A DNA stretch of 64,000 nucleotides, from assembly GCF_054482595.1 (NCBI RefSeq), contig NZ_CM137008.1. One strand, given 5' to 3'. Below are positions 43,575 through 43,845 of the stretch, piece after piece. Numbering within the stretch: position 1 is the first letter of the stretch; every line of letters starts with the position of its first letter. Under the pieces are notes generated by a model. The model saw only the letters and a program-made list of their open reading frames with translations. It did not search any database and was not told where the DNA came from. A program made the position numbers and the translations under genes.

Positions 43575-43845
43575 TTATATGCCTTCCTTCTTTGTTCTTC
43601 ATGTAATGTGCTTTTTCTTATGGCGATAGTGTTACCTATCGCCATAAGATGCGTTAGTATTTTTTTAATCTAACTGTTTATACTGTTAACTTCGATGATT
43701 TTCTATTTTATATCATGTGGTTAAGCGGTGGTGAGTTGGTGAGGAGTGAAAAGTCGAATCTTCCCCTTTGTGATTTTTGCTCGTTCTGGATCTGCCCGGT
43801 CAGGCGATGTGGTGGGGGGGGGTAAAAAGTTTTTTTAGGTTTTAC

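Follow-up and report, generated by a model that had tools for sequence, protein, structure and literature searches.

A length-variable G-run in the crr spacer of a decayed P4-like satellite at ssrA of Escherichia coli, with probably no control over the adjacent AbaSI-family gene

Gene content of the satellite remnant

The window, a 64-kb stretch of DNA, is the E. coli chromosome around the tmRNA gene ssrA, and a degraded P4-like satellite fills its interval between ssrA and the autotransporter gene ypjA (Table 1). The decay of the satellite is seen in a truncated alpha, the two pseudogenes psu and int, and a deletion of about 4.5 kb. The remaining part of alpha shows 84% DNA identity to the 3' end of P4 alpha, with the homology stopping at 44660, and is named in RefSeq as a primase-like DNA-binding domain protein missing its N-terminus. 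The junction of the ~4.5-kb deletion lies at 44644 to 44722, where alpha codon ~554 is fused to the delta/psu boundary, and the lost segment comprises ori, the immunity region, sid, and delta. The terminator of alpha is conserved in the alignment with relatives, and a homologous terminator is annotated in P4. The RefSeq annotation of an isolate with a slightly differing copy of the locus has the same gene layout. To set the limits of the island, we looked for an att-site duplication of the 3' end of ssrA and found no 13-mer repeat, and an Rfam scan of the whole window gave no match near the tract analyzed here (43811 to 43836), with the tmRNA as the sole match in the island.

Two groups of defense genes remain in the element. 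The ATPase and the HNH nuclease, which match PDC-M01A/B and Septu PtuA in PADLOC, are located between the psu and int pseudogenes, the known psu-int position that is the main defense hotspot of P4 satellites (PMC9122126). At the other end, the 293-amino-acid product of the restriction gene matches mREase_II in PADLOC (E = 4e-122) and contains PvuRts1I-like_N and SRA domains according to precomputed Pfam hits, in agreement with its RefSeq name.

Table 1 Features of the satellite remnant and its surroundings in the window
Feature	Position	Strand	Description
ypjA	37679-42382		Autotransporter gene
AbaSI cassette	42637-43659		1023 bp, between crr and the ypjA flank; bounds from relatives without the cassette
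AbaSI/PvuRts1I-family gene	42693-43574	-	Modification-dependent restriction endonuclease, 293 aa
Inverted repeat	43616-43649		Perfect, 14 nt with 6-nt gap, TCTTATGGCGATAG / CTATCGCCATAAGA; cassette-specific leader
Distal crr repeat	43653-43772	+	120 bp, degenerate; from alignment
Inter-repeat crr spacer	43773-43823		~51 bp, vs 60 bp in P4; from alignment
G9 homopolymer	43814-43822		3' end of crr spacer; C9 on the strand encoding the neighbor genes
Single T	43823
A5	43824-43828
Single G	43829
T7	43830-43836
Proximal crr repeat	43824-43943	+	120 bp; homology to P4 crr 4471-4590
Type I iterons (TGTTCACC-like) of proximal repeat	43846-53(+), 43855-62(+), 43898-905(-), 43916-23(-), 43930-37(+)
Terminator of alpha (t-alpha equivalent)	43962-43981	-	Intrinsic; 8-pair stem, 6 G-C pairs, T-rich tail
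alpha primase-helicase gene fragment	43990-44660	-	C-terminal, ~223 codons; P4 homology and RefSeq
psu pseudogene	44723-45289
Two-gene defense cassette	45670-48203
ATPase gene	45670-47352		560 aa
HNH nuclease gene	47358-48203		281 aa
Integrase pseudogene	48206-49228	-
ssrA	49583-49945	-	tmRNA gene; Rfam scan

The AbaSI-family gene is part of a cassette with sharp bounds. In relatives without this gene, the match to the window breaks off at 42636 and resumes at 43660, with ~92 bp in between. The gene thus arrived within a cassette of 1023 bp that includes 85 bp of upstream DNA of its own. Other relatives carry at the same place a retron St85 or a TIR-domain reverse transcriptase (L004 and L006). 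The cassette occupies the position of the minor P4 defense hotspot between the primase gene and the att site, which holds 7% of the P4-encoded systems (bioRxiv 10.64898/2026.02.27.708500), although this likeness concerns the neighbor gene and not the tract, which is inside the conserved crr and about 155 bp off the cassette boundary. The inverted repeat found in the leader of the cassette, 42 to 75 bp upstream of the ATG, could be an operator or a 5'-UTR hairpin.

A P4-type crr downstream of alpha

The DNA from 43824 to the alpha stop codon is 83 to 84% identical to that of phage P4, whose record (X51522) annotates crr at 4291 to 4590 as two 120-bp direct repeats with 60 bp between them, each with five "ori type 1" repeats. 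Full-text literature searches on the P4 crr returned nothing on the spacer, so the crr anatomy described here follows the GenBank annotation and the general P4 literature. We aligned the crr of the window with those of P4 and five E. coli relatives, and both repeats were recognizable in the window. As in P4, they come immediately after alpha and its terminator: the 3' end of the alpha fragment is at 43990, and it is followed by the terminator and then by the repeats, two direct repeats of ~120 bp, each opening with A(n)(G)T(n), separated by the ~51-bp spacer. The proximal repeat, 76% identical to the first crr repeat of P4, retains five iterons within one mismatch of TGTTCACC, in the same order and orientations (+ + - - +) as those of each P4 repeat. 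By position, repeat architecture, and iterons, we can predict that the structure is a P4-type crr with a putative cis-acting role in alpha-dependent replication, now an orphan, as alpha is truncated and the ori region has been deleted.

Unlike that of P4, the distal repeat of the window has lost its iterons. All five carry mutations (TGTTTATACTGTTAACT in place of the TGTTCACACTGTTCACC of the family, for example), and a search of this repeat allowing up to one mismatch found none. The distance between equivalent iterons of the two repeats is 171 bp in the window and 180 bp in P4, P4 reads CAGGAAG at the place of the G9 homopolymer, and after crr it has attP, whereas the window has the restriction-gene cassette. 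The same degenerate distal repeat is present in L019 and L030, two elements with an intact alpha and the AbaSI cassette, so the loss of the iterons tracks the cassette and not the decay of the satellite.

Composition and origin of the G-run

The tract at 43811 to 43836 reads GGTGGGGGGGGGTAAAAAGTTTTTTT, that is, GGT-G9-T-A5-G-T7. The initial annotation had described it as a homopolymeric G9-A5-T7 tract in intergenic DNA. The three runs are all there, but a single T and a single G intervene, so they are not strictly contiguous. The intergenic location is correct, with the iterons predicted to bind alpha on the alpha side and the degenerate iteron repeat toward the 293-aa gene. The A5-G-T7 part is not due to chance, as it is the conserved opening of the 120-bp crr repeat in phage P4 and its relatives (the two corresponding positions of P4 are A6T8 and A6GT8). 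What had been noted as A5-T7 thus belongs to the start of the proximal repeat and not to a composite tract, and only the G-run is peculiar to the lineage of the window. This run makes up the last nine bases but one of the spacer, the 3' end of which is G-rich throughout the family, judging from the bases before the A-run in 63 relatives.

By base composition alone, the G9 homopolymer is unexceptional. It is the only G/C run of at least 8 in the whole 64-kb window, where an independent-base model predicts 0.29 runs of at least 9, and 14% of the 64-kb windows simulated with a first-order Markov model contain a run of that length. Runs of at least 7 are depleted in the window (2 observed versus 4.9 expected).

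The alignment points to a simple origin for the run. Other E. coli elements read GCAGGGTGAT, GCGGGGTGAT, or TAGTGGGAGT at this site, while the nearest relatives, L019 and L030, which have an intact 777-aa alpha and share the AbaSI cassette and the degenerate distal repeat with the window, read GGGGGGAT (GGTGGGGGGAT in its longer form). L017 reads GGGGGGGT (GGTGGGGGGGT in its longer form), which has the length of GGGGGGAT with the A replaced by G, and the window has two Gs more than L017. We infer that in the simplest history a single A>G transition fused the G6 into a G7, and slippage followed.

Length variation among near-identical loci

Over 2.1 kb of otherwise almost constant sequence, no site varies more than the tract. 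We compared 11 loci that differ from the window by 0 to 2 substitutions over 42601 to 44700, and five of them have another tract length: G7 in L017, G8 in L020 and L021, and G10 in L002 and L014. Records with such lengths include CP181284 (G7), CP057470 (G8), and CP123244 (G10). Against these five length changes, the 2.1 kb of the 11 loci show four substitutions and a single further 1-base deletion. The window allele is present in 15 of 5,426 RefSeq complete genomes (G9 in 14 of them and G10 in one). Of six matching metagenome contigs, one has G9 and the other five have interrupted forms (three times G6AT, and once each G5AT and GGAGGGAT). G9 is strongly modal, at about 18 of 23 loci. The suspicion that the site is prone to slipped-strand mispairing or to error is supported by this spread from G7 to G10, and the comparison across isolates that had been proposed as a check shows that the length is not invariant.

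The carriers do not form a single clone, as their ypjA flanks differ from the window by 25 to 42 substitutions, and loci that share one common ypjA allele include G7, G9, and G10. The divergence in the 3' half of ypjA (41200 to 42400), which also includes several indels, contrasts with the island DNA of the same carriers (42600 to 45074), nearly invariant with 0 to 2 substitutions; this suggests recombination in ypjA or a recent spread of the island.

The errors that persist in long-read assemblies are usually miscalled homopolymers. We considered whether the length differences are sequencing or assembly errors on a true tract that is fixed at G9 in all carriers. The G7, G8, and G10 alleles all come from chromosome-length records, which we take to be long-read assemblies, while two short-contig assemblies (L010 and L015) read G9, and L021 lacks one more base elsewhere in the 2.1 kb. 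However, the other four variant assemblies show no further indel in this conserved region, the G7 of L017 has exactly the length of the ancestral GGGGGGAT, and lengths from G5 to G12 occur at the site in independent lineages, in draft isolate genomes as well as in metagenomes. Although individual alleles may be miscalled, error as the source of all the variation is very unlikely.

Relationship to the restriction gene

The G-run had been proposed to act as a phase-variable switch of the 293-aa gene through a divergent promoter. The orientation on which this proposal was based is wrong, as the alpha fragment is on the minus strand like the 293-aa gene, and the two are not divergent. A modified version of the idea, in which the tract switches the AbaSI-family gene by changing promoter geometry or the spacing of an upstream element and so turns defense up or down in subpopulations, has the following in its favor: the tract is on the sense side of the gene, 240 bp upstream of the ATG, tract lengths between G7 and G10 are found among isolates whose restriction protein is identical, and restriction systems are commonly phase-variable in other bacteria.

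A strict consensus scan of 43300 to 44200 found no sigma-70-like site, and a weight-matrix scan of 43540 to 44000 on both strands found no pair of hexamers spanning or abutting the tract, so a promoter on the tract itself was rejected. The best minus-strand candidates, between 43660 and 43735, are 80 to 160 bp nearer the 293-aa gene, and none of them reaches the median of the best scores from 460-bp stretches in the rest of the window. The promoter of the restriction gene is most likely situated within 43575 to 43735, closer to the gene than the tract is. We also rejected a frameshift switch, as no open reading frame longer than 36 aa covers the tract, only plus-strand frames of 30 to 36 aa. 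The absence of a promoter-like pair at the tract and of any longer open frame leaves the proposed switch unsupported. In addition, the cassette has its own upstream DNA, and the same gene with the same upstream region is found behind the interrupted GGGGGGAT in intact elements, while similar G-runs occur in satellites with other downstream cargo or none.

The homopolymeric promoter tracts of contingency loci, such as those of Neisseria porA and opc and of Bordetella fim genes, resemble that of the window in being intergenic G/C runs of at least 7 upstream of a gene, with a length that differs between isolates. Those tracts are located in the spacer between -35 and -10 or directly against the core promoter, whereas no promoter-like pair flanks the tract of the window, which is 240 bp away from the start codon. 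A contingency locus of this type combines a homopolymer of about 7 or more, length differences among close isolates, and a location in a coding frame or in or against a core promoter. The G9 homopolymer has the required length and differs among close isolates (although the G7, G8, and G10 alleles may include sequencing errors), but it has no such location, and for this reason we do not class it as a contingency locus. E. coli is, in addition, proficient in mismatch repair, and the phase variation known in this species proceeds by DNA inversion or Dam methylation, not by homopolymer slippage. Taken with the scans, this makes control of the AbaSI-family gene by the tract highly improbable.

Recurrence of G-runs at the crr spacer

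G-runs at this site are not restricted to the lineage of the window. Among 63 P4-like crr copies in viral contigs, six have G7 to G10 at exactly the tract site, all of them in elements whose alpha is intact, and a further scan contributed G12, G7, and G10 from other spacer lineages. Raoultella planticola, in one species-representative genome, has G8 at the site, and a second G-run lineage was found in E. coli, in 1 of 5,426 genomes. By the bases left of the run (GTGGT, GATGA, GAGTGA, CAATGA, CGAAGA, and GATGCGC), we distinguish about six spacer lineages. In 490 kb of P4-like DNA there are 12 G/C runs of at least 7, six of them at the tract site, compared with an expectation of roughly 45 by our own independent-base estimate with an assumed G+C content of 50%. 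Nowhere else in P4-like satellites are long G/C runs as common as at the tract site.

Recurrence at one fixed point raises the question of whether the G-run is a selected feature of crr, tuning the replication of the satellite through the spacing or helical phase of the repeats, or through the DNA structure beside the A/T tract, and persisting in the decayed copy as a leftover. The range from G7 to G12 in about six lineages, the intact alpha of the six surveyed carriers, the concentration of half of the long G/C runs at this site, and the G-richness of the spot in the whole family are in line with this idea. About 90% of the family, including P4 itself, lacks the run, though, and the distance between the repeats is free to vary by several base pairs. 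In 80-odd P4-like loci (L001 to L090), the iteron-pair distance shifts one-for-one with the tract length, without compensation. These distances fall into two classes, 167 to 172 and 177 to 183 bp, about one helical turn apart. Moreover, one crr repeat is enough for the replication of P4. A G-rich seed shared by the family at a non-coding site that tolerates length changes would account for the recurrence without selection, as elsewhere the elements are mostly coding and G-runs would cause frameshifts. We consider a tuning role in crr very unlikely.

In our reading, the runs recur because a compact element has few non-coding sites that can accept a change in length, and at one of these the family has a G-rich seed in common. 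We regard selection for variability as a highly improbable cause. In its strongest form, such selection would mean that P4-like satellites hold a G7 to G12 contingency locus at the junction of the crr spacer and the proximal repeat, varying replication efficiency or cargo expression, of which the G9 of the window would be an instance in a decayed copy. We give this low odds; to our knowledge, it would be the first repeat-based variable element reported for this satellite family.

A silent, hypermutable repeat as the most probable reading

The reading that we favor, with a probability of about 80%, is that the G9 homopolymer is a hypermutable but functionally silent mononucleotide repeat in the crr spacer of a decayed P4-like satellite, which arose by an A>G change and subsequent slippage and exerts no control over the AbaSI-family gene. 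The ancestral state would be the G-rich motif GGGGGGAT that the nearest intact relatives still have at the site. One A>G transition would have converted it into G7, and replication slippage, by both lengthening and shortening the run, would have produced the present range of G7 to G10 with G9 as the modal length. The run would persist because the spacer tolerates changes in length, and would be tolerated all the more in the window because the replication system is dead there, with alpha truncated and the ori region deleted. Some observations fit less well with a silent repeat. The recurrence of G7 to G12 at the exact site in about six lineages, with an intact alpha in all six carriers of the 63-locus survey, and the concentration there of half of the long G/C runs in 490 kb of P4-like DNA could reflect selection and not only a shared seed in a tolerant spacer. 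The predominance of G9 also leaves a narrower range of lengths than might be expected of a neutral repeat that mutates very fast.

For the genome of the window, the tract would matter little. It is best handled as a homopolymer at which assemblies and variant calls require caution, and not as a regulator. Its value is rather as a flag for a P4-type crr and for a decayed satellite with two defense cassettes at ssrA.

G-runs in other contexts

A long G-run also occurs away from crr in another P4-like element, L085. This G12 (minus strand of the locus) is some 3 kb distant from the crr and close to the 3' end of the open frame that precedes alpha, where the sense strand has C12 and codes for a proline stretch. 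The 20-mer G7-TAAAAAGTTTTTT had further matches in unrelated viral contigs, which we treated as low-complexity coincidences and not as homologs; they fall in the 5' codons of a lipoprotein-like gene and in intergenic regions between HNH and small-terminase genes. In L091, L094, and L098 (around position 1431), C9 or C10 is found at codons 6 to 9 of the lipoprotein-like gene (MKKLFTPPLL...), and the C-run differs in length between contigs, which makes this gene a candidate for phase variation by frameshift. The G7-8 TAAAAAGTTTTTT string between HNH and small-terminase genes was seen in several unrelated phage contigs (L092, L093, L097, and L100; L095; L099), of which L095 stops 17 bp past the string. 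The interval between these two genes is the usual place of cos sites, and the string may be a coincidence or a packaging-site motif.
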